Shown piece by piece: positions 2,743 to 24,019 of a stretch of 64,000 bases of DNA. The stretch comes from a virus. The notes under the pieces are model-generated. The model saw only the letters and a list, made by a program, of their open reading frames with translations, did no database searches and was not told the origin of the DNA. The first letter of the stretch is position 1, and each line of letters opens with the position of its first letter. The translations under genes and the position numbers were made by a program. Location of the stretch: the IMG/VR virus record IMGVR_UViG_3300035698_010358, positions 1 to 64,000 of that record. One strand, written 5' to 3'.

Positions 2743-3393
2743 GTGGCAAAAACTGCATCTACCGTCAATTATCAAACTCGGGGAGCACAGTTCGCTGTCG
2801 GTGACGTAGTGTACCCGTTTTTGGACGGCAGCTCTGACCTGAATGGTCGAGTTGTAGCGGTCTGGCCTGCCATCGGAATGGTAGATGTGGAGTGGCCTCA
2901 CGGGTCAGAACGTCTCCCGGTTGAGGATATTCAAAAAATATCTCCTGATTCATTCTATCAACCCCCCGAAGTGGCACCTGGTGAAAGTAGTGTACCAGGT
3001 GGTGCTGATAGTGTTCCAGTGTCGTCAGGCCCGTCTGAAAAGGCAACTATCCCTGATGAGGGACAAGTAACTCGGTTGACTGCTGCTTACGTTAAGAAAG
3101 CTGTGTGGCAGAACTCCCAATTACCTGAATTCAAACGAAGATTATCCCTTTACTGGGCATCTCGTGACCGACGGTATAGGGCCAGGAAGACTGAGACTAT
3201 TGGTGGTGTTTATCATTGCCCGAAGTGTGAAGGGGTTGAATTACGGAAAGCTATCTATAAACGACGTGCCGGTGAAAGCCTGCATTTGCTAGGTTGCCCT
3301 AACTGTCTGTTCCTTATTAAGAAGTCAGACATCATCGGTGACCCGAGTTATACTGAATTTGATGTTACATCCAACCGGAAACGGAGGCTGTAA
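2743..3393 (+). CDS. Hypothetical head-module protein with C-terminal zinc ribbon
   Basis: AAGGAG RBS and GTG start; CPKC...CPNC; stop overlaps the protease start. Confidence 0.65.
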   Translation: MAKTASTVNYQTRGAQFAVGDVVYPFLDGSSDLNGRVVAVWPAIGMVDVEWPHGSERLPVEDIQKISPDSFYQPPEVAPGESSVPGGADSVPVSSGPSEKATIPDEGQVTRLTAAYVKKAVWQNSQLPEFKRRLSLYWASRDRRYRARKTETIGGVYHCPKCEGVELRKAIYKRRAGESLHLLGCPNCLFLIKKSDIIGDPSYTEFDVTSNRKRRL

Positions 3394-5000
3394 TGGCATT
3401 TATGAAGTTTGCTCACGCAACAGTCGTTCAACCACACGTGTCAGCTAATAGTTGGAGTAAAGTCCGAACTGCTGGTGATGTGGCCAAATCAGGTAGTGAC
3501 TTGGATAAGAACCTTATTGTCCGAGCCTCAAAATTATTTGAACAGGACTTCAAACCGAGTGATTTTCTTTTAACCCACGCTACCATCATTGCTTCAGTTG
3601 ACACGTTTGCTCCTGTCGGGGTGAAGACAGGTGCTCAACTGGTGGATGGATTCCAGGTTAACCGTAAATACTCAGATTTCAGAATCACAGCTTCCACTGA
3701 TAAATTCGTCAACAACAATAACGATGCTTGGGCACGAGATGTCCTCATGAAGTCCTACCAGACGTTCGTGGGGGGCCATAATTTCGTCGAACACATCCAG
3801 GTAGAGGAATTGTCCCGTGGGAGAATCATTGATGCCGTAGCTCGTGATGTCGGTGATTCCATCTATGTTGACATTCTCATTGCCACTGACCGTAAACACA
3901 CTGATCTGATTCAGGCTATTGAGTCTGGAAAAATGAGTACCTTATCTATGGGTTGTACTGTAGATGGGACGATTTGTTCGAAGTGTGGTCATTGGGCAGC
4001 AGACGAAACCGAAATGTGTCCCCATATCAAGTATGAGAAGGGGAACACCTTTTTTGATGAACAGGGGCGTCAGTCCCGGGTTGCAGAGCTTTGCGGTCAC
4101 GGAACAATTGACCCTCATGGTGGTGTTCATTTTGTTGAAGCCTCCTGGGTAGAACAACCTGCATTTACTGGGGCAGTTCTACGGAACGTGTTGGAGCCTA
4201 CTCCTATCACAATAGCTAAAGTTCAGGAAGTTTTATCTTCTGTACCTCCACAATGGTCGGATAATGATCAGCTAAAGGCTGCCAGTATCCGAACTGATAT
4301 TTCTTCTGAAGCCCCTATAGTGGCTGCAAGGATAGTGGATGGCACTTTCGTACAGACCAAAGTAGCTGTTGGAAACATTGGGGAAGCCCAACGTTTTGCA
4401 GCTTATGGTGGTGCAGACCCGTTCTTAGCAGGCTGGGAAGATGAGGGTGAAGCTGAGGGTGAAGCTGAGGGTGAAGCTGAAATGAGTGACACCCCTCCGA
4501 CCGGACAACCTGCCAAAAGTCCGTTGGAAGATGCTGAGGAAGACCTTGAAAAACATTTGATGAACCGAGTAGTTCAAAGAATGAAAGACAAGATGAAAGA
4601 CAAGGCTGTGGGTGAGGCCCTTGGTGGTGAATCCTCAATGGCACCAAATGACAGTCTCGTTAAAGAGGGGACTGTCGGTAGAATGTATAAAGCAGCTTTG
4701 AAAACTATTGTCAGGAAAACATCAAGTGATGCTGACATGGTGGATTCTTTAGCTGATTATCATCAGACAATAGGTATTGATATTCCTGTAGAAATCTATA
4801 GGGCATCTTTAGTAGTTGGTTCTCATAAGAAATATAGCTCAGTGAATACGTTCTGGAGTGCTTGCTGTCGGGTTCTTGGACGTGTACCGAGTCATTATGA
4901 GGCAAAAACAATATTAAGAATTTCTAAATTGCTAACCCAGAGGAAGTCTTTGGGTAGTGATTTTCAATCAGGCAGCCGCCGTAAGGAGAAAACGAGATGA
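3393..5000 (+). CDS. Prohead maturation protease (HK97/herpes-like fold) with CxxC insertion
   Basis: GGHNFVEH (His), STLSMGC (Ser), CSKCGH..CPH, FVEASWVEQPAFTGA; upstream of scaffold and capsid genes. Confidence 0.8.
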   Translation: MAFMKFAHATVVQPHVSANSWSKVRTAGDVAKSGSDLDKNLIVRASKLFEQDFKPSDFLLTHATIIASVDTFAPVGVKTGAQLVDGFQVNRKYSDFRITASTDKFVNNNNDAWARDVLMKSYQTFVGGHNFVEHIQVEELSRGRIIDAVARDVGDSIYVDILIATDRKHTDLIQAIESGKMSTLSMGCTVDGTICSKCGHWAADETEMCPHIKYEKGNTFFDEQGRQSRVAELCGHGTIDPHGGVHFVEASWVEQPAFTGAVLRNVLEPTPITIAKVQEVLSSVPPQWSDNDQLKAASIRTDISSEAPIVAARIVDGTFVQTKVAVGNIGEAQRFAAYGGADPFLAGWEDEGEAEGEAEGEAEMSDTPPTGQPAKSPLEDAEEDLEKHLMNRVVQRMKDKMKDKAVGEALGGESSMAPNDSLVKEGTVGRMYKAALKTIVRKTSSDADMVDSLADYHQTIGIDIPVEIYRASLVVGSHKKYSSVNTFWSACCRVLGRVPSHYEAKTILRISKLLTQRKSLGSDFQSGSRRKEKTR

Positions 5001-6559
5001 AAAAGCAGCGTGAGCGTATGACGTGGGCTGCGGGTCGTAAGGCGAGTGCCCCACCCGCAGTTCCTGGCTACAACGTGGAAGACCAAGATCATCCAGCACA
5101 CAACGGACCCGATCCTGACATGCACAAGTATGAAAATGGTGATACGTCCAGTTGGGCTGAAGATGTCCGTCAACCCCCTTACCCCGAAGGCAATCCTCCG
5201 GCTACCCCCGGATATGATGCTGAAGACCAGGACCACCCGGCTCACCAGAGTCCACCTCGTGTGTCCCTGACAGCAGCCGTTCGGAAACGTGCCAGCAAAT
5301 GTCTGAAACTTGCAGGCATTCAGTTGGATGGCAGGAAGATGACCAAAGCTCAAATCGAAGACCATGCAATGGACTTGATGGAGCTGGGTGACTCTCAAAT
5401 CGATAACATGCTTAACCGTTTCGGTGGTGGGTTCCTCGCTGACGAAATGGATATGGGAGAAGTTACCGAACCGATTGCTGATGATCTGGACGAACTTCTG
5501 TCGATGGATGAATTGGAAGATGATATGGCTCTCGAAGAACCTATCCTTGCTTCTGATGACGATGACGATGACGATGATGAGTCTGATAAGGAAGCATCTT
5601 CTGAAAAGACAGCAGTGGAATCCATCATGGCAAAACTGGAAGCCATGTCCGCTGATATTGCTACTCTGAAAGGTGATGTTGTTGCATCTGATGATGATGA
5701 TGATGACGAAGAAGAACCTGACAAAGAAGCAGCCAGTCAGAATGACCCTAAAGGTCCAACCCTTGCTCCAACTCCGAAGTCAGAAGATGAAGCCCGTAAA
5801 GAGGCTTCTGACCCTATCCTTCAGGAATTCGATTCGTATGACACCGGTAAAACGGGATTCGTCAGCGTTGATGAATGGCAGGGCAGTAAAGCTGTGTTTG
5901 CAGCACTGGATACCGACAACGACAAGATTCTTGCTCGTGTCGACCTTGTAGCTTCCTGTAGTTCAGTAGTCGAAGCAGGTCTGGAACCTGAAGAAGTGGC
6001 TATGTTGGCTGAGATGACAGCGGGTGCTGAAGTTGGAGCCTCTGCCTGTAACCCAACTTCTGACATCCTTGAAGATGAAGAGATGATGGGTGATCCGATG
6101 GAACTGGAACTCATGGATGAGCCTCTCGTAGGTGAGCCCATGATTGTGGCTGAAGAAGATGCTGGTATGTTCGGCATGACGCATGACCCAATGGGACTCT
6201 CTGACGGTGCTCCTATCATGTCCTCTGAGGACGATGCCATGCTCGAAGAAATCTTCGGTGGTAAAGTTGCCAAGAAATCCGATGACGATGACGAAGAAGT
6301 TATCGAAGAAGAAGTCGAAGGCAAAAAGAAATCAGCTAAGAAATCTGATGCTGAAGAAGAAGAAGAAGTCGTAGAGGAAGAAGTCGAAGGCAAGAAAAAA
6401 GCTGCCAAGACTGCTTCCCAACGGCCTCAACCCCGTAAGAGGAGTGCTGGTGTCCAGCAGGTTGGGAACATGACCAAAGCTGCTTCCAGTAACGAATTCA
6501 AAGAACTCCAGAGCATGTGGGCATCTGATCCTGACGTGTCTGACGTGTTCGGTAGCTAG
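4997..6559 (+). CDS. Acidic capsid scaffolding protein with an EF-hand-like pair
   Basis: Very D/E-rich; lies between protease and capsid genes; loops DTGKTGFVSVDE and DTDNDKILARVD. Confidence 0.65.
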   Translation: MKKQRERMTWAAGRKASAPPAVPGYNVEDQDHPAHNGPDPDMHKYENGDTSSWAEDVRQPPYPEGNPPATPGYDAEDQDHPAHQSPPRVSLTAAVRKRASKCLKLAGIQLDGRKMTKAQIEDHAMDLMELGDSQIDNMLNRFGGGFLADEMDMGEVTEPIADDLDELLSMDELEDDMALEEPILASDDDDDDDDESDKEASSEKTAVESIMAKLEAMSADIATLKGDVVASDDDDDDEEEPDKEAASQNDPKGPTLAPTPKSEDEARKEASDPILQEFDSYDTGKTGFVSVDEWQGSKAVFAALDTDNDKILARVDLVASCSSVVEAGLEPEEVAMLAEMTAGAEVGASACNPTSDILEDEEMMGDPMELELMDEPLVGEPMIVAEEDAGMFGMTHDPMGLSDGAPIMSSEDDAMLEEIFGGKVAKKSDDDDEEVIEEEVEGKKKSAKKSDAEEEEEVVEEEVEGKKKAAKTASQRPQPRKRSAGVQQVGNMTKAASSNEFKELQSMWASDPDVSDVFGS

Positions 6560-7480: not shown

Positions 7481-8353
7481 ATGCCTATTGACAATGCCGT
7501 AAAACAACGGTTGATTGGTGAGTACATCAAGACCCCCGCCGGTCGTGCTAAACTCGCTGCTTCGATGACACAACCCCTGAGAACCCGTCGGGATTATGCT
7601 GCCGTTGGTCGTAAGACCTTCTTGGTAGAACAACTCCCAGATGGTGCTTTGCCGTTATACGACAAAGACCCTGATGTGACGGCGTTCGTGGTTGGTGAAG
7701 AAGGTCAGAATATCCTGGCTGTCACTAAACCTAGACGTGTGATTTTCCCTCTGTTTGAGGTTGCCTCAAACCCCGAAATTCCTTTGACTCAAATCAAGGA
7801 ACGTCGGTTCGATCTTATCGAACGTGCCCAGGAACTGGCTCGCGCCCAGATTCAGGCTGCTGAAGATGAGAGAGTGTTTGCTGTTCTCGACAGTATTGCT
7901 ACAGCAGGTTTCGATTCTTTGCCTGCACAGATGAATGCTGACATCCCTGTCATTGCACCCATCACAGGTCAGATCCTTGCTGATGCTTTCTCTTTGATCG
8001 AACGTCATGACCTTCGTGTAGCCCGTGTCTACATGAATGCCCGTGACTATGCTGATCTGAGAAAGTTTGGACGAGACATCCTGGATATCGAATCCCAGGC
8101 AACTCTGCTGAAGACTGGTCTGATGGCTACCCTCTGGGGAGCACAGATTGTGACAAGCCGTTTGGTTCCTGTGGGAACGGTCTACATTTGCTGTGAGCCT
8201 GAGCACTTCGGTCGAATTCCGGTTCGTACTGAGCTGACAGTCCTCTCCGCCGATGACCCCAAAGCCCGTACAATCGGTTTCTCCGTCTTCGAGAACATTG
8301 GTATTGGAGCCTTCAACCCTCGTGGTTTGGCTCGTCTGACTATCACCCGATAA
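7481..8353 (+). CDS. Major capsid protein (HK97 fold)
   Basis: Strong RBS; 290 aa; AQIQAAEDERVF, VYMNARDYADL, LWGAQIVTS and GFSVFENIG pattern; terminator follows. Confidence 0.85.
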   Translation: MPIDNAVKQRLIGEYIKTPAGRAKLAASMTQPLRTRRDYAAVGRKTFLVEQLPDGALPLYDKDPDVTAFVVGEEGQNILAVTKPRRVIFPLFEVASNPEIPLTQIKERRFDLIERAQELARAQIQAAEDERVFAVLDSIATAGFDSLPAQMNADIPVIAPITGQILADAFSLIERHDLRVARVYMNARDYADLRKFGRDILDIESQATLLKTGLMATLWGAQIVTSRLVPVGTVYICCEPEHFGRIPVRTELTVLSADDPKARTIGFSVFENIGIGAFNPRGLARLTITR

Positions 8354-15525: not shown

Positions 15526-16332
15526 ATGGCTTATGCGTACATCGTATTGAACCGTAACGACATTGCAGACAACCTTCTGCAAGTGTTTGACATCAAACCC
15601 AACACTAGCCAGCTCGGCATTTATGATGCTGCTTGGGCTAGCCAGGGTGGTCAAACTGGGTATTTAACGTGGCTGTCCCAACACGATGTTGTGGCTACCA
15701 CAGCTGGAGCTGCTGCCATTGAAGTCACTGATGCTGCATACAAAGGGCTGAATGCTTACCTGATTGATAACGTTGAAAACGTTCAGGATGGTAACTTGGC
15801 TCTGACCGACACTCTGGCTATTGCAGTTGGGGATCTTATCCGTGACCGTTTATCGGCAGGTGGAACTCTGACTCTGGCCATCCTCAACACCATTATCAAC
15901 AATACCATCGGTGGGGCAGCCAGCTCTGACCTCGATGGTACAGCAGCAGCCTCCTACTCGACTGGGACGGTTGAGGAAGTCCTCCGTGTTCTGGCCGGTG
16001 AGGTTTACCGTGTCCCAGCAGGAGCTCAGGTTGGTAATGCTGCCAATGCTTTCCCTGGTCATGGTACAACCCACGTCAGGCTTGGTGGCTATGTGGCTAC
16101 TACGGACAGTGAATTCCGTCACGTTCGTAAGTTTGCTAACACAGGTGCCCTGAACCTGTCGTGTTTGTCGGGCAACATGTCCAAGATTAAAGCGGCCACC
16201 TACTCCTTCGTGAACCCTCTGTTCACCTATGGGGCAGCAGGCACAGCTTTGACATTGGATGGAACCCATATCCCAGCAACCGGAGTTGCAGCAGCTGTTG
16301 CAGTCTACGAAAATGACGGCGAACTGCTGTAA
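15526..16332 (+). CDS. Virion structural protein, paralog 2 of 3
   Basis: YIVLNRNDI..LQVFDIKPNTSQ ... VAVYENDGELL. Confidence 0.7.
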   Translation: MAYAYIVLNRNDIADNLLQVFDIKPNTSQLGIYDAAWASQGGQTGYLTWLSQHDVVATTAGAAAIEVTDAAYKGLNAYLIDNVENVQDGNLALTDTLAIAVGDLIRDRLSAGGTLTLAILNTIINNTIGGAASSDLDGTAAASYSTGTVEEVLRVLAGEVYRVPAGAQVGNAANAFPGHGTTHVRLGGYVATTDSEFRHVRKFANTGALNLSCLSGNMSKIKAATYSFVNPLFTYGAAGTALTLDGTHIPATGVAAAVAVYENDGELL

Positions 16333-16344
16333 GGAGGTAATTTC

Positions 16345-17292
16345 ATGGCACATAGAGCTTATGTTCTTGCCCAACGGAACGATGTGACTGGGATGAATAT
16401 CCAAGTCCTCGATCTCAAGCCAAATTCGAGCCAGAAAAGTGGTTCTTATGATGGTGACGGGCAAACTTTCTATTTGAATTCCATTGACACCGCTGGAACT
16501 ACCCACATGATTGACAATGGGTATGAGTCCGGCAGTCGTCAGACGACTATGATTGCTTTTTACGAAGCAGTTGCCGATGACACCACCGGTGGTGGAAACG
16601 ACGTTCTTGCTAACCAGAATGCCTGCCTTGGTTTGGCTGCTTACCTCCGTGAGCATGTACAACCTGGTGGTGTTGCCTCGGCTACAGCCGGTCGTATGAC
16701 CTTGGCTCATGCTAACGATCAGGCAAGTGCTATCTTGGCTTTGGTGGTTTCTGGTAGTGACTTGACTTTGGCTGGAATCAACGCAGTCCTGGTGAGTGTG
16801 GCAGACGGTGGTGTGGCCAACACGGACCTCGACGGTGCAGCAACCCTGTCGAAATCGTTCGGTAGTGTGAGCGACATCCTTCGTATCGTAGCTGGTGAGA
16901 TTTATCGTTCTCCGATGAATTGCATCGTCTGTAACGTAGCCAATCAGTTCCAGTCCCTGGCAGAACGAGATGTTCTGGTACTTGCCCAAGTGAGTGCAAC
17001 TACTGAGAAGACCTTCGTGTCTCAAGGTGGCTTCTTGAGTAATCTGGAAAACGGTTACGAGAAAATCCCGACGTTGGCAATCACTGGTGATATGATGGCA
17101 TCCATCGGCGGTGGCTACCTGTTCAAAATGGAAGCTGGGATGACCTTCAAAAACCCTGGCTTTGCTTATGCAGCAGCCGATGTCACTCCTTACAAACCCC
17201 GTGCCAATGACCTGAGTGGTACAAACATTCCGGCAACAGGGACTCTGGGAGCCGTGCGTGTTTACGATTATGAAGGAACCAACCTGCTGTAA
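16345..17292 (+). CDS. Virion structural protein, paralog 3 of 3
   Basis: YVLAQRNDV..IQVLDLKPNSSQ ... VRVYDYEGTNLL. Confidence 0.7.
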   Translation: MAHRAYVLAQRNDVTGMNIQVLDLKPNSSQKSGSYDGDGQTFYLNSIDTAGTTHMIDNGYESGSRQTTMIAFYEAVADDTTGGGNDVLANQNACLGLAAYLREHVQPGGVASATAGRMTLAHANDQASAILALVVSGSDLTLAGINAVLVSVADGGVANTDLDGAATLSKSFGSVSDILRIVAGEIYRSPMNCIVCNVANQFQSLAERDVLVLAQVSATTEKTFVSQGGFLSNLENGYEKIPTLAITGDMMASIGGGYLFKMEAGMTFKNPGFAYAAADVTPYKPRANDLSGTNIPATGTLGAVRVYDYEGTNLL

Positions 17293-17319
17293 AAAGCCAG
17301 TTCCTGCTCCAGATAGATG

Positions 17320-17349
17320 ACGGAGGCCATGATGGCCTCCGTTTTCTTT
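17320..17349 (+). terminator. Rho-independent terminator
   Basis: ACGGAGGCCA/TGGCCTCCGT stem plus Ts. Confidence 0.85.
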
Positions 17350-17422
17350 TATATAACCCTGCTTAGTATAGGAACCCCGTTTTTTGTGGGTGGGGGAAAT
17401 AAAACAGACAAGGAGAACAGAC

Positions 17423-17668
17423 ATGGAAACGACAAAAGAATTTAGAACTTCAGACCTCTATTTTGCAGCTTATCTGAAAGTGGCTGGTGTGGAATTCAAA
17501 GGAACGACCAAAGAAGGAAATCGAGTTTTCTTCATGTTCGAGTCTGGGGGAAGTATTCCTGACCTGAAAACACAGTATTTCAACCGGGTGGCTAAGGTCC
17601 CAGCCCTGACGTTCGTGGATGAAGTTCGTTCAATGAAGGGTCTGACTTACATGGAAACAGGAAGCTAA
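17423..17668 (+). CDS. DUF5659-like small protein
   Basis: AAGGAG RBS; FRTSDLYFAAYL..G...RVFFMF pattern. Confidence 0.65.
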   Translation: METTKEFRTSDLYFAAYLKVAGVEFKGTTKEGNRVFFMFESGGSIPDLKTQYFNRVAKVPALTFVDEVRSMKGLTYMETGS

Positions 17669-18028
17669 ATGGCCACTGTCCTTGCTAATAGTCCATTCAC
17701 ATTTCAGGTTTTATTCCTGGATGTGGACAATACCCCAATTGTTGTGTTGAATCCAACGATTACTATATTCAGTTATAGTGACCTTGGGGTAAAACAAGAG
17801 TTGGTTGCTGCCACCGTAATGGATCCAGTTACCCCCGTGGAAGTTGGCCGTTATATTTACACGTATACCGTGCCCAGTGTTTTTGATGAAGGGGATATGA
17901 TTTACGGTGAGATAATGGGAGAGCATCCTGTCAGTGGAGACCTTCTACGGTATAGTGAAGGTGTCTCAGTGGTGACGTTGCCGCCGGGGTCCCAAGGGTT
18001 GTCTTGGAATATCATCAAAGGTGGTTGA
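17669..18028 (+). CDS. Small Ig-like beta protein (putative structural)
   Basis: VGRYIYTYTVP resembles VGEYYASLMVP in 18688; abuts neighbours. Confidence 0.55.
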   Translation: MATVLANSPFTFQVLFLDVDNTPIVVLNPTITIFSYSDLGVKQELVAATVMDPVTPVEVGRYIYTYTVPSVFDEGDMIYGEIMGEHPVSGDLLRYSEGVSVVTLPPGSQGLSWNIIKGG

Positions 18029-18030
18029 AA

Positions 18031-18327
18031 ATGCTGTGGGTTTTGTTTCTTTTAGCCGTGTATGGCATCGTGTTCCTGCTCAGGCATAAATGGGAGCTGG
18101 GGTTTCTTCGTGGCTTCGAGTTCTTTGAGAGGCTATTGGACTGTGCCTTCTGTTTAGGTTTCTGGGTTGGAGGTCTAGTATGGACGGTCATTCAGACATT
18201 TTCCGACCTCATCATGGACACTAATAGTTGGATTGGGTTCTTTTTCTTCGGGATTATGTGGTCCTTTGCTTCAGCAGCGTTCTGTTACAACGTGGATAGA
18301 ATCGTGGAGGATTCAGAATGGATATGA
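18031..18327 (+). CDS. Small membrane protein, DUF1360-like
   Basis: Three hydrophobic segments; LLDCAFCLGFWVG. Confidence 0.6.
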   Translation: MLWVLFLLAVYGIVFLLRHKWELGFLRGFEFFERLLDCAFCLGFWVGGLVWTVIQTFSDLIMDTNSWIGFFFFGIMWSFASAAFCYNVDRIVEDSEWI

Positions 18328-18686
18328 GGATAGATTGCCAAGTAGACGTACCTATAGAGGTTCAAGGTGGTAATTTTGCTGATGCCTTTCGGATCATCAC
18401 TTTAAAAAATGATGAGTGTCTTTTGGATTTCATGTCCATCTCACAATGCCGTACCAAAGCATCTGTTGTGGCCAGAATCCGTGTAGAGAATAAATTCATG
18501 GCTTCTATTAGGGATCGATTGGAATCAACCCTGGAAGAAATAGATGGTAAGCATTACGGTACTCTGACACCAAAACAAGTTGAAGAGATGTGGTTTTTAG
18601 TAGACCAGTTTCCGATAGATGATGACCAGGAAGAAGGAGCATTACCATTAGCTTGGTATGTAACCCCTTCAGAAAAGGTAGATTAA
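18318..18686 (+). CDS. DUF3467-like protein; paralog of 8876-9109
   Basis: GGAGG RBS; shared motifs with 8876. Confidence 0.6.
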   Translation: MDMRIDCQVDVPIEVQGGNFADAFRIITLKNDECLLDFMSISQCRTKASVVARIRVENKFMASIRDRLESTLEEIDGKHYGTLTPKQVEEMWFLVDQFPIDDDQEEGALPLAWYVTPSEKVD

Positions 18687-18687
18687 G

Positions 18688-19188
18688 ATGTCAGTTGCAT
18701 TTGTTCCTGGAGAAACGATAGGGCGGGGGGATCTGGACATTTTCTTGCAGAGTGCTCAAGGTAACCCTGCAAATGCAGCAGAGATTTATTACACCCTCTA
18801 TTACGTATCCCCCGGACCCCCCGAATCTGAAGTTCAGGTTGGACAACCCCAACGAATACCAGTGAATCCAGCCGTCGGGGAGTATTATGCTTCTCTAATG
18901 GTTCCAGCAGGCTCAACCCCTGGGACGTATAGGATTCGGTGGACGTTCCGAGAATTGGTGAATTCTCCCCAGCAGCAAGTTGTTCAAGAATTTGCTGTTG
19001 TCACTGCAGCAGGGATAGCATTGGTTCCTGGATATGACCCGTATCAAACAGCAATGATGAATAGTCTTAGAATGCTTCTCAGAGATCAGTGTGTTGGTGA
19101 GGAGGTGAAAGTCGAAGTAGATGCCGACGGGGAACTTCTGGTTGTGTCTATGAAGGACTTATGGGAGGCTTTGAAAGATGAAGTCTAG
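18688..19188 (+). CDS. Fractured putative neck/head-tail gene, piece 1: 134-aa extein plus 32-aa intein N-fragment
   Basis: Ends LRDQ|CVGEEVKVEVDADGELLVVSMKDLWEALKDEV, an intein block A with Cys1 at 19090. Confidence 0.8.
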   Translation: MSVAFVPGETIGRGDLDIFLQSAQGNPANAAEIYYTLYYVSPGPPESEVQVGQPQRIPVNPAVGEYYASLMVPAGSTPGTYRIRWTFRELVNSPQQQVVQEFAVVTAAGIALVPGYDPYQTAMMNSLRMLLRDQCVGEEVKVEVDADGELLVVSMKDLWEALKDEV

Positions 19189-20101
19189 CCAACCACATGT
19201 AAAACTAGTACCCTTGTTAGAGAAATATAATATTTCTTGGGGTTTATTTTGTAAAAAAGGTCGTTTGCCTAATGACTTGAAGTGGGTAAAAGAGAAACGT
19301 GTGTTTATCATTACAGAATTACACTCTCAAGGCACCTCCTGGGCCAATATGGTATTTATTACGGGTTTGTCTCAAGGTTCTATTCAGCGTTTAACTAAAG
19401 CTATGTGGAACCAAGCATCACGGGACAAATTGAATAAAATAGGTGAGAAGGTTGGGAAATCATGGAAAGGTAAAAAACGTCTAGGGCAATTAGAAAAACA
19501 ATGGAAAAATGGCGTTTTTGATTTTCATCGAGGACGGAAAAGACCGGAGTGGGAAAAAGAAAAATTACGTGCTTCATGGACACCTGAATTAAGGGCACAA
19601 GTATCGGAAGAACGGTTAAAACGGTGGCAAGACCCGGAATACCGAAAAAACCTTTTAGATTACCACAGAAGTCCTGAAGTTAGGGCTGAGAGGTCTAAAT
19701 TACAAACAGAACGGATACTGGCTGATCCTGTGAAATGGACAAAGGGTCGGGGTGCTTATGTTGAGGCTCTAAAAGAAAAACGAGAGGTTGTGTGGACACG
19801 GAGTTCATATGAACGAAGAGCTCTCTTAGTATTAGATAGTGATCCTAATGTGGTTTCTTATGAGTATGAACCACGGATAGAGTTGTCTGATGGTTTTTGG
19901 ATAGTTCCTGATTTTTTAGTGTTCTTTAAAGATGGGTCTCAAACTCTTTTAGAAATAAAAGCCTCTTGGGTATACGGTCTTCCAGAGGGCCATAAAATTC
20001 ACATTAGATTAGAGAAATCTAAAAAGTTAGCTTGTGATAGAGGTTGGGGTTTTTCTATATGGACTGAGAAAGATAGGTTGGAAGATGTTAAGTGTGCATA
20101 A
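19178..20101 (+). mobile_element. Free-standing homing endonuclease, TnsA-like PD-(D/E)XK
   Basis: RSSYERRAL..LDSDPNVVSYEYEP..VPDFLV..LLEIKA; N-terminal HTH and basic helices; overlaps both intein halves. Confidence 0.8.
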
Positions 20102-20849
20102 CAAATTGGTTCAGGCTTTTCGTGCAGGGAAACTGAAAACCCGATCTGTATCCCCTGAAGGAAAATTGGAGTGGAAACCCATAACGGATGTTCATAGGGC
20201 TGAAGTTCCTTGGGAAGAGATTATACAGGTTGGCACAGATCAAGGACATACTTATCTGACTAAAGGGCACAGGGTTTTTGTATCCCCTACTGCAAAACGG
20301 GAAACTGGGGATTTAATAAAAGGTGATGGGGTTCTAGGTGTAGATTTACAGGATAATGTATTTCATCCTGTAATAGTGTCTACAGATACTGTACCATCAC
20401 GTAAATATATGTATGATATGACTGTTGCAGACTGGCATAATTTTGTTTTGTTCGATTCTCGGATTGTTATTAGTAATTGCCCTGATAAATTCTACCATTT
20501 CCGACCACCAGAGTATGAAGGTGACATTGGCCAATACAATCGAATATTCGGACAGATTTGGGAAGATGCTGAACTTCTGGAATATCTGTTGAGATCTTTG
20601 GATTGGTTCAACATGTTCCCTCCCCTGACACAGAAAATCAATACTCTCACACGTTTGGTTCAAGATATGCCCTCGTGGAGGACAGCGATCCTTTGGGGCG
20701 CAATTACCCATGCCTGTTTTGCACTTTCAATAAATTGGGTTGCTGACGAATTTTCTGTTAGGGGTGACCAGGAAGTGACCGTTATAACAAAAACAGGGAA
20801 AAAGGTTACGTTGTCTATTCAGGAGTTGTATGAAATATGCAAGGGATGA
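20085..20849 (+). CDS. Fractured gene, piece 2: 131-aa intein C-fragment, 92-aa extein, 31-aa second intein N-fragment
   Basis: TKGH (block B), MYDMTV..HNF (block F), ISN|C at 20477/20478; WVADEF|SVRGDQEV with Ser1 at 20754. Confidence 0.85.
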   Translation: MLSVHNKLVQAFRAGKLKTRSVSPEGKLEWKPITDVHRAEVPWEEIIQVGTDQGHTYLTKGHRVFVSPTAKRETGDLIKGDGVLGVDLQDNVFHPVIVSTDTVPSRKYMYDMTVADWHNFVLFDSRIVISNCPDKFYHFRPPEYEGDIGQYNRIFGQIWEDAELLEYLLRSLDWFNMFPPLTQKINTLTRLVQDMPSWRTAILWGAITHACFALSINWVADEFSVRGDQEVTVITKTGKKVTLSIQELYEICKG

Positions 20850-21787
20850 TAACAAAACGACAAATTTTGTTGAAATACGGGTTCAATGACAAGACTTTCC
20901 GAAAGATGATGTCCGAGGGGGTTGTCAGCCCTGATTATATTCAACAAGGTAAAAGAAAAACCTTATTTTTTAAAGAGGGCTCTTTGAGGTTTGTTGAAAA
21001 CCTTCACTATGTTATTTGTTTAGAGTGTGGAAAATGGATGAGTCAGATCACCACGAAGCATTTAAAAAGCTGTAGTGGAATGGTATTGCAGGATTACAAG
21101 GAAAAGTACCCTAAAGTTCTATTGATCTGTTATAGGACTAATGGTAACCATGTAAAAACAGAAGAACAAAAGCAAAGACAGTCAGATGTTTTAAAGGCAC
21201 GTTTCCAAACGGAAGAAGGGCAGAAAACCCGAGAAGTTATTTGCCAAGCATCTATTCGTTTAATGAAAGGCCCGTATCGTAAACAAGCTGCAAAACACCT
21301 AAAGGATTTGAATCAGACTACCAAGATGAAGGAATTTCATCGGGGGCATACCAAGAAAAGATGGGAAGATGGCGGGGATCTTCGGTATCTTATCCCAAAA
21401 TGGCATCTGGATAATAAGGATTATTCAAATCAATTGGCCGCAAATGCTCGTAGGTTTATAAAGAAAATTTCAAAGCCGCACATTAGGTTAAAAGTTTTAT
21501 TGGAAGCTGCTGGTATCCCAACAGTTACGGAATATGAAGTCGGTTACTATGCCATTGATGAAGCAATTCCAGGGAAAAAGATATCCATTGAGATGCATGG
21601 TTGTTATTGGCATAGTTGTCCTGTTTGTGGGTTGGAAGGTCCTTCCCTGAATAAAAGGATTGACAAGTCTAAAGCTACTTATCTGAAAAATAGGGGTTGG
21701 GAACTTGTAGTGATTTGGGAACATGAGTTGAAAAATAATCCTGAAATGTGTATTGATCGGGTGAAGGAGGTTGTAATAGGATGTTGA
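20837..21787 (+). mobile_element. Free-standing homing endonuclease, Vsr/DUF559-like
   Basis: YAIDEA..ISIEMHGCYWH..DKSKATYLKNRGWELVVIWEHE; N-terminal CLECG..KHLKSC zinc finger. Confidence 0.85.
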
Positions 21788-22467
21788 CTGATGCTTTAAA
21801 AAGAGAGATTAAGGAATCCTTTGAAGAGGGTTCCCTGAAAGTCCTTAGCGTGAACCCAGATTCTTTAGAGCCCTCTTTAGAATCGGTTACTGATGTTATG
21901 AGGCATCTTACTCCTCATAAAACAATTTTGGATGTTGAGACCTCACAGGGGCATACTGTTACGACTGAAGATCACAGTTTGTTCATGGAGGATATGTCTA
22001 CGGTACCAACTTCTGAGTTGCAGGTGGGGGGTTGTATTGCTTGTATTCAGAACGGGGTCTATCAACCGACCCCTATTCTGGGCATTTCGGAAACGTTGAG
22101 GGAACAATATACTTATGATTTATCTGTCCCTTCATTTGAGAATTTTGTCTTGTCCAATGGAGTGGTTGCACATAACTCATATAGCATAGGGGGAGTGTCC
22201 TTAGATATCGATAAATCTGCCAAATATGAGTCCTTAAAGCAGAATGCTGAGGGACAACTGACTTTGGCCACCGAGGCCAAGCAACGGACAGTGAAATTCA
22301 TTCGTGGGCTACAGCAGCCCAGATTCGGGATGGGTGTTAGGTCGAGTTTTGGCCCGTTTGTGGGGAAAGGTATACTTAGCCCTCGTAATTTCGTGGCTTG
22401 GGCTTCTGTTATATTAGTACCAGCTTTGATGTTTGTTAGTTCTGCTAACAGTTCAGGTTTGGTCTAG
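21781..22467 (+). CDS. Fractured gene, piece 3: 132-aa intein C-fragment plus 96-aa extein
   Basis: TTEDHSLF (block B), YTYDLSV..ENF (block F), VVAHN|S at 22176/22177. Confidence 0.85.
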   Translation: MLTDALKREIKESFEEGSLKVLSVNPDSLEPSLESVTDVMRHLTPHKTILDVETSQGHTVTTEDHSLFMEDMSTVPTSELQVGGCIACIQNGVYQPTPILGISETLREQYTYDLSVPSFENFVLSNGVVAHNSYSIGGVSLDIDKSAKYESLKQNAEGQLTLATEAKQRTVKFIRGLQQPRFGMGVRSSFGPFVGKGILSPRNFVAWASVILVPALMFVSSANSSGLV

Positions 22468-22679
22468 GTGTATGTTTGATAGAAGTTTAGAATTACGTAT
22501 TGGGGGTAATGTTCTTAATTAACTGTTGTATTTTTTGTATGCGTTGGTTAATATCTGTGTTTATTTCAGAAATAAGAAGCCTGAGATCACGGTTAATAGG
22601 ATTCAAAGGTTCCTTGGTATTCGGTAAGGTAGTTATAATTACCTTATTAGTATTGAAGGATTTTTTAAGGAGATAGAAA

Positions 22680-23477
22680 ATGGATAAAGCATCTTTTACT
22701 TTTAATGAGAACTGGTTTTTCCCAGATCCTCCTGCTCGGATTGAGAATCTTCTTTATATGGCACAGAAAGTTGACCCTAGTGCTCATGTGGACGATTCTC
22801 AATACCAAAATAAAGTGGTGGTAGATAAGAAAAAGGCACCAGCCTTAATTAAGGTATTCGAATCCAAAGGAATGTTTGTGTCTGAAGAGAAACGTGGGGC
22901 CTACAAGGTGTTGTGGGGTAAAAAGCGGGCAAACGAGAGTCAGGGTTTACGTGGCCATGTAGAGAAATTAGCCAATGAGAACCCAGAGTTAAGGGGGCAT
23001 CTGGTTCCTTTGTTGAAACAGGCTGCAACACAAAAGTTTAATCCTGAGATGATCTCAAAAGCTAAGAAGCTCCTAAATACTATGAAAAATTATGGTTGGC
23101 AGTGGGGTGATGACAATCTGAAAGAAGTTTCTCGTAATGGGGAGTTTTATTTTTCACAGATGAGTCCTCATAATGCTCCTTGGGATGATGAAGAGGATTT
23201 CAAAACATATGTCCCTCCTTTTCGGGCAGGGCAGCTTTTTCGGAAATATAAAGTGGAGGACCACGCTGGATTGGTAGCAGTTCTTCATAAATTGCAGGAA
23301 CAGTGGAAGAAGGATTCCTTTAAGTTTTCGAGGGTTGTAGGTAAAATTACCCCAAAGGATGCTGATGTTAAGTTATTGTTTAACCCTGACCGTCAAGGTA
23401 CACTTTTTGCACAGGTATATGTGAATGCCCAGCCTTACCTAGAGTGGACAAGTCATCGTGCTAAAGAGGAGAAGTGA
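22680..23477 (+). CDS. Two-domain protein with internal LANENPELRGHLVPLLK tag
   Basis: AAGGAG RBS; shared tag. Confidence 0.7.
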   Translation: MDKASFTFNENWFFPDPPARIENLLYMAQKVDPSAHVDDSQYQNKVVVDKKKAPALIKVFESKGMFVSEEKRGAYKVLWGKKRANESQGLRGHVEKLANENPELRGHLVPLLKQAATQKFNPEMISKAKKLLNTMKNYGWQWGDDNLKEVSRNGEFYFSQMSPHNAPWDDEEDFKTYVPPFRAGQLFRKYKVEDHAGLVAVLHKLQEQWKKDSFKFSRVVGKITPKDADVKLLFNPDRQGTLFAQVYVNAQPYLEWTSHRAKEEK

Positions 23478-23660
23478 TGTTGGAATGGTTTCAAAAATTG
23501 TTTATAGAAAAACCCCCCTGAGCCTCTACCCCTCAAGTATCGGGATTTAGGTAATAACGAGGTTGAAGTGTCTTGTGGTGACCGTAAAACTACAGCTATT
23601 TATTTTTCAGAGGCTGCTGTGGAATATATTGAAGCAGCTAAGAAAAGGATATTGTCATAA
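23477..23660 (+). pseudogene. About 60-aa gene interrupted by a +1 frameshift at a C6 run
   Basis: ATG overlaps the upstream TGA; CCC CCC TGA; the +1 frame is open to a TAA that overlaps the next ATG. Confidence 0.55.
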
Positions 23661-24019
23661 TGTGGTGGGTATACGTCATACAATCTCAAGAAGTTCGGAC
23701 AGGTAAAAACGGTAAGATCTTACCTGGGTTCCATTACGTGGGATGCACAACTGACCCTGCTCGTCGTATAAGACAACACAACGGCTTGTTGACCGGCGGA
23801 GGGAAGTACACCAGTAAACATCGTCCGTGGGTGCCACGAGCTCTCTACGGCCCCTACAATGGACGATCTAATGCAATGAAGGCCGAGTATGCCCTAAAGC
23901 ACGGGAAACGCAGCACAGCTCGAACACGGTGGTCTGTAGAGGATTCTCCTTGGTGTCGAGGTAAAGGGTCAAACGACCCGTGGATTACTGACGGTATTTC
24001 CCCTATTGAGGACTCTTAA
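23660..24019 (+). CDS. GIY-YIG nuclease, SLX1-like
   Basis: WVYVIQS..HYVGCTTDPARRIRQHNG..GGKYTSKHRPW..AMKAEYALK. Confidence 0.85.
   Translation: MWWVYVIQSQEVRTGKNGKILPGFHYVGCTTDPARRIRQHNGLLTGGGKYTSKHRPWVPRALYGPYNGRSNAMKAEYALKHGKRSTARTRWSVEDSPWCRGKGSNDPWITDGISPIEDS

Follow-up and report, generated by a model that had tools for sequence, protein, structure and literature searches.

How can a phage obtain one protein from a gene that is scattered over five overlapping open reading frames (ORFs)? This is the question raised by positions 18688-22467 (+ strand) of the virus record IMGVR_UViG_3300035698_010358, analysed here in a window made up of the first 64,000 nucleotides of that record. The record itself is a 72-kb fragment, ~14% complete by CheckV, from a huge salt-lake phage with related contigs of up to 497 kb. 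The answer for which the evidence argues is that we are dealing with a doubly fractured gene, whose three polypeptides are very probably joined by the trans-splicing of two split inteins into a protein of 322 amino acids (aa). The five ORFs follow each other in the order extein 1-IntN1 (the N-terminal fragment of intein 1), TnsA-like nuclease, IntC1-extein 2-IntN2, Vsr-like nuclease and IntC2-extein 3, in frames 1, 2, 0, 2 and 1, and neighbouring ORFs overlap by 7-17 bases. A first description made from the letters of the DNA, the sequence-only reading, had placed these five ORFs together with Cys1 at 19090, Ser1 at 20754 and the motifs TKGH, ISN/C, TEDH and AHN/S (the slash marking the end of an intein), and every one of these parts was recovered where it had been put. 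Gene callers would list here five unrelated hypothetical proteins, when the actual content is one host gene and four selfish parts.

The first ORF (18688-19188, + strand, as for all parts below; 166 aa) begins with extein 1 (18688..19089, 134 aa), which comprises the N-terminal Ig-like beta-sandwich domain and the first helix of the host protein, and continues across the boundary LRDQ/CVGEE... into a tail of 32 aa plus stop, IntN1 (19090..19188), which holds Cys1, two strands and the first helix of the intein. The third ORF closes at 20849 and opens at 20034 or 20085; its start is likely the ATG at 20085 rather than the GTG at 20034 that opens the longest frame, since a relative of the locus (L002) carries an in-frame stop two codons before the equivalent ATG. 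From that ATG it encodes the 131 aa of IntC1 (20085..20477), with block B TKGH, the block F Asp and a terminal Ser-Asn followed by Cys+1 (ISN/C), the 92 aa of extein 2 (20478..20753), which is the central helical part of the host protein, and the 31 aa plus stop of IntN2 (20754..20849), the N-fragment of the second split intein, opening with Ser1 at 20754. The fifth ORF (21781-22467) is composed of the 132 aa of IntC2 (21781..22176), with block B TEDH, the block F Asp and a terminal His-Asn followed by Ser+1 (AHN/S), and of the 96 aa plus stop of extein 3 (22177..22467), the conserved C-terminal part of the host protein with a hydrophobic tail of ~23 aa. Shine-Dalgarno-like motifs were seen by eye 10-12 bases upstream of three of the four starts inspected (19178, 20837 and 21781), and a weak one precedes the fourth, 20085; the start at 18688 lies outside these four.

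Whether the three exteins really are parts of one protein can be judged from relatives in which the gene was never broken. When viral contigs were scanned with extein 1, 27 loci came up at 46-91% identity, and these were sorted by local tblastn with nine parts of the window and by ORF translation. In 20 of the 27 the host protein appears as one ORF of ~298 aa, where each extein is followed directly by the next, with neither a gap nor an overlap, at the predicted residues (in L001, as blocks 2470-2871, 2875-3147 and 3148-3366), so that the contiguous homologues across both junctions implied by the sequence-only reading do exist, and exactly. Among these uninterrupted loci, four have an ORF of 318-325 aa with a hydrophobic tail, and in L019 the ORF is cut after 22 aa; the hydrophobic C-terminal tail of extein 3 is also found in the homologues L006, L017 and L020. 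The empty sites read LRDQ/NPDKFYHF and ADEF/DYSIGG, and 13 uninterrupted proteins all have Asn135 and nearly all have Asp227. In every intein-bearing allele that was read, the residue at +1 is instead Cys, Ser or Thr, and the predicted spliced product would differ from the uninterrupted protein in having Cys for Asn at junction 1 and Ser for Asp at junction 2. Such a change is telling, as the chemistry of splicing needs exactly Cys, Ser or Thr at this position, for which mere docking of the fragments would not select. Moreover, when a profile of the 13 uninterrupted homologues was run against the record, its matches fell into three tiles and no more, covering profile positions 1-133, 127-226 and 219-298, and the same profile found no second copy of the host gene in the 72 kb. 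What we find is thus the constitution by which fractured genes are recognised: a conserved host gene, broken into ORFs at intein insertion points, with uninterrupted homologues elsewhere.

The catalytic residues of class-1 inteins are present in both elements, in intein 1 as C1, TKGH, D and SN/C, and in intein 2 as S1, TEDH, D and HN/S. In an alignment of 15 sequences, comprising two contiguous inteins from the viral loci, five whole proteins with a contiguous intein at site 1 and eight IntC fragments, the Thr and His of block B, the Asp of block F and the terminal Asn were invariant in 15/15, at only 24-49% identity to the reference. IntN1 aligns with residues 1-30 of contiguous mini-inteins and IntN2 with the N-terminal ends of contiguous inteins at site 2, and IntC1 is 49% identical to the contiguous intein of L013. 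A structural model of that L013 site-1 intein, built with the 15-sequence alignment, showed the Hint fold proposed for these elements, with a pLDDT of 96.3 and a pTM of 0.90; Foldseek against the PDB returned, among the matches listed, inteins and other Hint-type domains with TMq values mostly of 0.6-0.8 and up to 0.80, including RadA, Mtu RecA, Npu DnaB, NrdJ-1, Aes123 PolB1, VidaL and gp41-1. The Hint assignment of intein 2 is drawn from the Pfam family Intein_splicing, which piece 3 matches with 47.1 bits (above the cut-off of 35.8), and from its alignment to intein 1.

A detailed view of the L013 model also shows where both inteins of the window are broken. In it, two strands (7-12 and 15-20) and a helix (21-30) are followed by the block of lowest confidence (31-40), which is the split site and a stretch in which contiguous relatives differ in length. 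Both inteins are split after this first alpha-helix, in the variable linker after about residue 32, which leaves IntN fragments of 32 and 31 aa and IntC fragments of 131 and 132 aa; the split position is the atypical S2 site. Intein 2 has, besides its Ser1 and Ser+1, three non-catalytic Cys residues. As for the pairing of the halves, a predicted complex of the window's IntN1 and IntC1 reached an ipSAE of 0.94 in three runs, in comparison with 0.02 for the best of three controls; the partners had a pLDDT of 94 or more, and the contacts agreed in full. Of 78 solved complexes 51 attain the mark of this test, as do 2 of 108 mismatched pairs. The prediction supports an IntN1-IntC1 pairing, falling short of a demonstration, and it concerns pairing rather than chemistry.

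Could the intein halves then be acting as interaction domains that just hold the fragments together, with no peptide bond being made? A precedent for such non-covalent assembly is the nuclease-split NrdA of phage Aeh1, as presented in the available text of PMC3045599, and both the silence of the complex prediction on chemistry and the missing penultimate His of intein 1 (see below) would suit it. It is nevertheless improbable, in view of the conservation of all splicing residues at the low identities just given, of the replacement of Asn or Asp by Cys, Ser or Thr at +1 specifically in intein-bearing alleles, and of the contiguous alleles of the same inteins (L013, P0013), which must splice in cis to free the host protein.

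Several observations weigh against splicing by the two split inteins and have to be set beside the foregoing. By itself, piece 2 matches Intein_splicing with 20.7 bits (E 3.8e-4), under the cut-off. The penultimate residue of intein 1 is Ser, not His; the same holds for 11 of 12 further site-1 inteins in the alignment (the exception, P0015, has His), and judging from this alignment the absence looks like a trait of the family, though one that may affect Asn cyclisation. The success of the IntN1/IntC1 prediction may in part reflect likeness to, or memory of, split inteins of solved structure. An intact second copy of the gene is possible elsewhere in the genome, as the record covers only ~14% of it. 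Among the sequencing runs listed as containing the stretch, none is of RNA. Finally, a charge swap that would keep the two pairs orthogonal was considered as a rule of the family and rejected. It fits the window, where net charges are -7 for IntN1, +1 for IntN2 and -13 for IntC2, and +2 and -4 for the first 45 residues of IntC1 and IntC2, respectively. In relatives, IntN1 tails carry -5 to -8 in 7/7, but IntN2 tails are also acidic, with -2 to -8 in 16 of the 17 accepted as intein tails (a further hit of the regular expression, P0078, was dropped from this count as not being an intein tail), and the charge pattern is possibly a trait of the window's own lineage. The two pairs must be kept apart by something, since mispairing would skip or cyclise extein 2.

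Quite another explanation would take the inserts out, or pass over them, before or during translation, by means of a group I or group II intron or of programmed frameshifts fusing the five frames, or would make of the whole layout an artefact of assembly. The ORFs do overlap in different frames, and introns are described as frequent in huge phages (PMC12880540, in its available part). On both flanks of each insert, however, recognisable intein halves are read in the same frame as the adjoining exteins, four frameshifts would be required, and no Rfam family, group I and II introns included, matches 18000-23000 at E <=1. A relative from which both nuclease genes are deleted (L002) retains the stop and start codons all the same. 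Short contigs from four sequencing runs were identical to the window across 19090/19178, 20754/20837 and 21781, that is, at three of the four junctions, and among them none skips an insert or shows a continuous ORF; the best-matching run may be the source sample itself, so this agreement is not independent support, the runs exist as contigs only, which makes depth or missing coverage uninformative, and the fourth junction, 20085-20101, is bridged by a single diverged contig. Taken together, removal at the RNA level or a hidden continuous ORF, two of the outcomes on which the sequence-only reading had made itself vulnerable, have found no trace in Rfam or in these contigs, and a bypass or artefact seems scarcely credible.

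The ORFs lying inside the inteins are free-standing genes for putative PD-(D/E)xK endonucleases, TnsA-like in intein 1 (HEN1, 19178-20101, 307 aa) and Vsr-like in intein 2 (HEN2, 20837-21787, 316 aa), and each overlaps the start of the downstream piece, HEN1 running over 20085 and HEN2 over 21781. HEN1 matches PF08722 with 20 bits, under the cut-off of 26.5, and has 97 homologues at 37-65% identity, for 55 of which PF08722 is on record. Its residues E231, P244-D245 and E259-x-K261 are invariant in 20/20 aligned sequences, and a profile search gave no solved relative. Scans of the viral contigs with single proteins found no matches for HEN1 or HEN2, and a profile was needed for the former (the latter was scanned as a single protein only); the HEN1 profile led to 22 viral loci, 19 of which have the gene at the same place in the same host gene, while three distant ones (27-34% identity) have it elsewhere. 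HEN2 matches phrog_3339 'homing endonuclease' (E 2.9e-11), and its Pfam matches all stay under their cut-offs (MTES_1575, 27.5 bits; ROS_MUCR, 25.3; Vsr, 16.2; also DUF559). Among solved structures, its C-terminal domain (residues 213-308) comes closest to 3r3p_A 'Mobile intron protein' (E 0.018) and next to Vsr (E 0.26), both weak matches, and homologues of HEN2 occupy the same place in L005, L025 and L031. A further observation is that residues 57-91 of HEN2, N-terminal to the Vsr-like domain, form a stretch resembling the ROS/MucR zinc finger (25.3 bits against a cut-off of 25.4; also 2jsp_A, E 0.42), which, going by these matches, is likely a DNA-binding module.

That both nucleases are homing endonucleases is suggested indirectly, by close relatives that have or lack the genes at one fixed place and by the low GC content of these genes, which is 0.385-0.389 (0.389 in HEN1), lower than the 0.485 of extein 1 and the 0.452 of the whole window, and points to a foreign composition. 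No significant hairpin was found ahead of either nuclease start, the folds of 19120-19200 and 20780-20860 having z values of 0.19 and -0.78 against shuffled controls.

The relatives of the locus keep the inteins and the nuclease genes in many combinations. Contiguous mini-inteins occur in L013, P0007, P0006 and others; in L013 and L014 the one at site 1 has 162 aa, L026 has a site 1 split with HEN1, L023 combines the same split with a contiguous mini-intein at site 2, and in L005 and L025 site 2 is split with HEN2. L031 has the same five ORFs as the window, at an extein identity of about 52-58%. In L002, on the other hand, both inteins are split and the nuclease genes are missing. Its exteins are 83-95% identical to those of the window, and all extein and intein pieces, stop codons and start codons are kept; in the place of the nucleases there are spacers of 79 and 90 bases (L002:6499-6580 and L002:7343-7433), which align with the beginnings and ends of HEN1 and HEN2. 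Going by these remnants, L002 has evidently lost both nuclease genes by deletion, its gene being left permanently in three pieces. Truncated or internally deleted versions of HEN1 are also seen between intact intein halves at L048:2501-2746 and L051:2501-3066, and these look like intermediate stages of nuclease-gene decay. Altogether, the allele states of the relatives preserve every step of the gene-breaking pathway proposed below.

Decay of this kind raises the question of whether the host gene itself is a pseudogene, destroyed by the nuclease insertions in a phage that uses another copy or no longer needs it. Decayed nuclease genes in some relatives (L048, L051, L002) and a record that covers a small part of the genome agree with that idea, which is still most improbable: all five ORFs are open, with ribosome-binding motifs before three of the four starts inspected, the five-ORF layout survives in L031 despite its diverged exteins, the extein and intein pieces of L002 have stayed intact while its nuclease genes decayed, and the record holds no second copy within its 72 kb.

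How common such breakage is can be estimated from the host protein itself. Its profile found 572 cluster representatives at E <=0.001 among 1.84 billion, and the best 150 of these 572 were sorted by blastp with the parts of the window into 43 uninterrupted proteins, 63 with an intein part and 44 that are fragments or have no part detected. The 63 include nine of the form IntC1-extein 2-IntN2, the middle piece of the double split, seven of extein 1-IntN1 and nine of IntC2-extein 3, besides mixed forms, and P0013 contains two contiguous inteins. Two further sites were noticed, one six residues past site 1 (NPDRNY/S...HN/SF, in P0106, P0077 and P0066) and one in the conserved C-terminal motif, where a contiguous mini-intein is inserted in L046:3038-3740 and P0042 (FGPF/S...SHN/SGRG). 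With at least four insertion sites in a protein family of ~300 aa, the host protein is an intein hot spot.

The history that would account for these data starts with the gene of a conserved virion-module protein of ~298-322 aa, into which two related class-1 mini-inteins would have inserted at two sites. Both inteins would later have received, in the loop past the first helix, a free-standing nuclease gene of their own, TnsA-like in one case and Vsr-like in the other, bringing the stop codon that ends the upstream piece and the start codon that opens the downstream one. Three polypeptides would then be made, extein 1-IntN1, IntC1-extein 2-IntN2 and IntC2-extein 3, and the association of IntN1 with IntC1 and of IntN2 with IntC2 would rebuild two Hint domains, whose trans-splicing reactions (Cys1/Cys+1 and Ser1/Ser+1) are predicted to yield the 322-aa protein with junctions LRDQ-CPDK and ADEF-SYSI. 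The nucleases would do nothing but propagate the inserts, through homing into intein alleles that lack a nuclease. The locus is well supported as real, with good evidence at the level of the DNA, and splicing, its orthogonality, the activity and target of the nucleases and the role of the host protein are inferences. A bolder proposal is that in the infected cell the two inteins are both at work and orthogonal to each other, so that tandem trans-splicing of three polypeptides is the obligatory and routine way in which a virion protein is made, for which we would put the chances slightly above even.

If this were true, the pair would constitute a natural toolkit of two S2-split inteins with an IntN of ~31 aa, one of them catalytically cysteine-independent (Ser1/Ser+1), and the TnsA-like gene would represent a so far undescribed family of homing endonucleases targeting intein-coding DNA. 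The presence of two unrelated nuclease families in the same loop of two paralogous inteins would moreover imply that invasion by nuclease genes is the origin of the atypical split site, and the position of the nuclease genes at S2 already suggests how atypically split inteins arise.

What the host protein does is less clear than how its gene is broken. It lies downstream, on the same strand, of a gene resembling head-maturation proteases (3393-5000) and of the major head protein (7481-8353; phrog_2522, E 1.6e-50), and is likely a virion structural protein. Eight of the 13 uninterrupted homologues match phrog_17327 'head-tail connector protein' weakly (best E 6.5e-6), and the alignment spans only residues ~160-261 of the homologue against profile positions 253-351 of 405. 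Of the neck or head-tail protein envisaged by the sequence-only reading, the virion structural part seems likely, and the head-tail part is a lead only, since the label comes from this weak match and from gene position. The window's three host pieces have no match in Pfam or PHROGs, the homologues have none in Pfam, and the profile of the 13 homologues gave no solved relative. The model of the L001 homologue is of moderate quality (pLDDT 65, with residues 137-160, 220-246 and 262-299 under 50) and shows a beta-sandwich at 1-105; Foldseek against the PDB and VIA-align recover only the common Ig-like or macroglobulin-like sandwich at residues 1-107, BFVD yields uncharacterised phage proteins, some labelled BppU_N or minor-tail, and the ESM Atlas yields viral "hypothetical protein" clusters. 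For the C-terminal two thirds of the protein these structure searches gave no fold match.

In many relatives a second, weaker match to extein 1 (26-36% identity) precedes the host gene by 0.1-1.9 kb (for example L021:5670-5894, L023:5198-5446, L031:1106-1411 and L034:1042-1332), which suggests a paralogous Ig-like domain protein nearby, with the ORF at 17669-18028 as its candidate counterpart in the window. Similarly, P0130, a protein of 4922 aa, has 20 separate stretches that match the Ig-like part of the profile (positions 73-107). As for the surroundings, in which only the protease-like gene and the major head protein could be given a name, 10/10 neighbouring proteins had no PHROG match and 9/10 no Pfam match at E <=0.01, the tenth, a 520-aa protein adjoining the protease-like gene (4997-6559), having a sub-threshold EF-hand_6 at residues 275-295 (E 1e-4, 22.2 bits against a cut-off of 25). 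A 524-aa open frame on the - strand (15850-17424), antisense to the + ORFs 15526-16332 and 16345-17292, may be spurious. Phage GenBank records gave no blastn match to 17000-24000.

How new, then, is such a locus? In the literature, where coverage is incomplete for subscription papers and supplements, no natural gene joined by two split inteins was found, and with the same coverage neither inteins inserted in members of this protein family nor a TnsA-like homing endonuclease inside an intein came to light. The sequence-only reading had regarded a natural double atypical split in a virion structural gene as something of which it knew no case; the literature agrees with it to that extent, and in nature the arrangement is recurrent, as seen in L031 and in the nine middle pieces among the best 150 representatives. 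The choice of a virion-module protein as an intein hot spot contrasts with fractured genes described as single breaks, nearly all in enzymes of DNA metabolism. On the practical side, split inteins with a short IntN are wanted for protein semisynthesis and cysteine-independent ones are scarce, so the locus and its relatives offer naturally paired candidates. If splicing is true, the locus is also a natural example of three-segment protein ligation. The inteins of the fractured loci known from earlier work are reportedly split at the canonical site of the nuclease domain.

The kind of element is already known from Dassa 2009 (PMC2677866), whose available text describes fractured genes as genes broken by a split intein, with a free-standing homing endonuclease gene lying between its two parts. 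Twenty-six loci are presented there, each with one fracture (what DnaE-1 has besides is no more than part of an in-frame intein), and the hosts are enzymes of DNA synthesis, repair or packaging, save one locus of unknown function, the argument being that other phage proteins are too variable to shelter inteins. A Vsr-like nuclease family is predicted in the same work, and as an accessory feature a hairpin is reported just upstream of the endonuclease coding region. The locus described here resembles those fractured genes, as far as that text goes, in the break at the intein insertion point, in a nuclease ORF between the halves that overlaps the downstream start, in its phage origin and in having one Vsr-like nuclease; the contiguous, fractured and nuclease-lost states of the model of Dassa 2009 are moreover all found among the window's relatives. 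It differs from them in its two fractures and three pieces, in a host that belongs to the virion module, in a split at S2 with the nuclease in place, in the TnsA-like nuclease and in the lack of a significant hairpin.

Natural inteins split at S2, after the first alpha-helix, are represented by AceL TerL and GOS TerL, and the natural IntN fragments range from 15 to 37 aa, according to the available part of PMC13014065, where PolB16, with an IntN of 15 aa and a split at S1, is given as the only known natural cysteine-less atypically split intein. Set beside AceL and GOS TerL by their description, the two inteins of the window share a short IntN within that range, the split past the first helix and a source in phage metagenomes, and are set apart by another host protein, by the nuclease gene still sitting in the split, by their tandem arrangement and by the Ser1/Ser+1 of intein 2. 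An equivalent comparison can be made for the nuclease of intein 2 with I-Bth0305I and the Vsr-like homing endonucleases (PMC3239194, in the part available; structure 3r3p), to which residues 213-308 of HEN2 align weakly (E 0.018), whereas HEN2 has in addition a long N-terminal region with the ROS/MucR-like zinc-finger stretch. Finally, the closest counterpart of the overall layout comes from the laboratory, for example in the tandem protein trans-splicing that Humberg et al. 2025 (PMC12707363, in its available text) engineered with a pair of orthogonal split inteins, where three segments are likewise ligated in order and the middle one bears an IntC at its N-terminus and an IntN at its C-terminus. 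Three-segment ligation now depends on such hand-picked orthogonal pairs; unlike the laboratory scheme, which uses inteins chosen as orthogonal, the layout found here is natural, recurrent in relatives and presumably obligatory.

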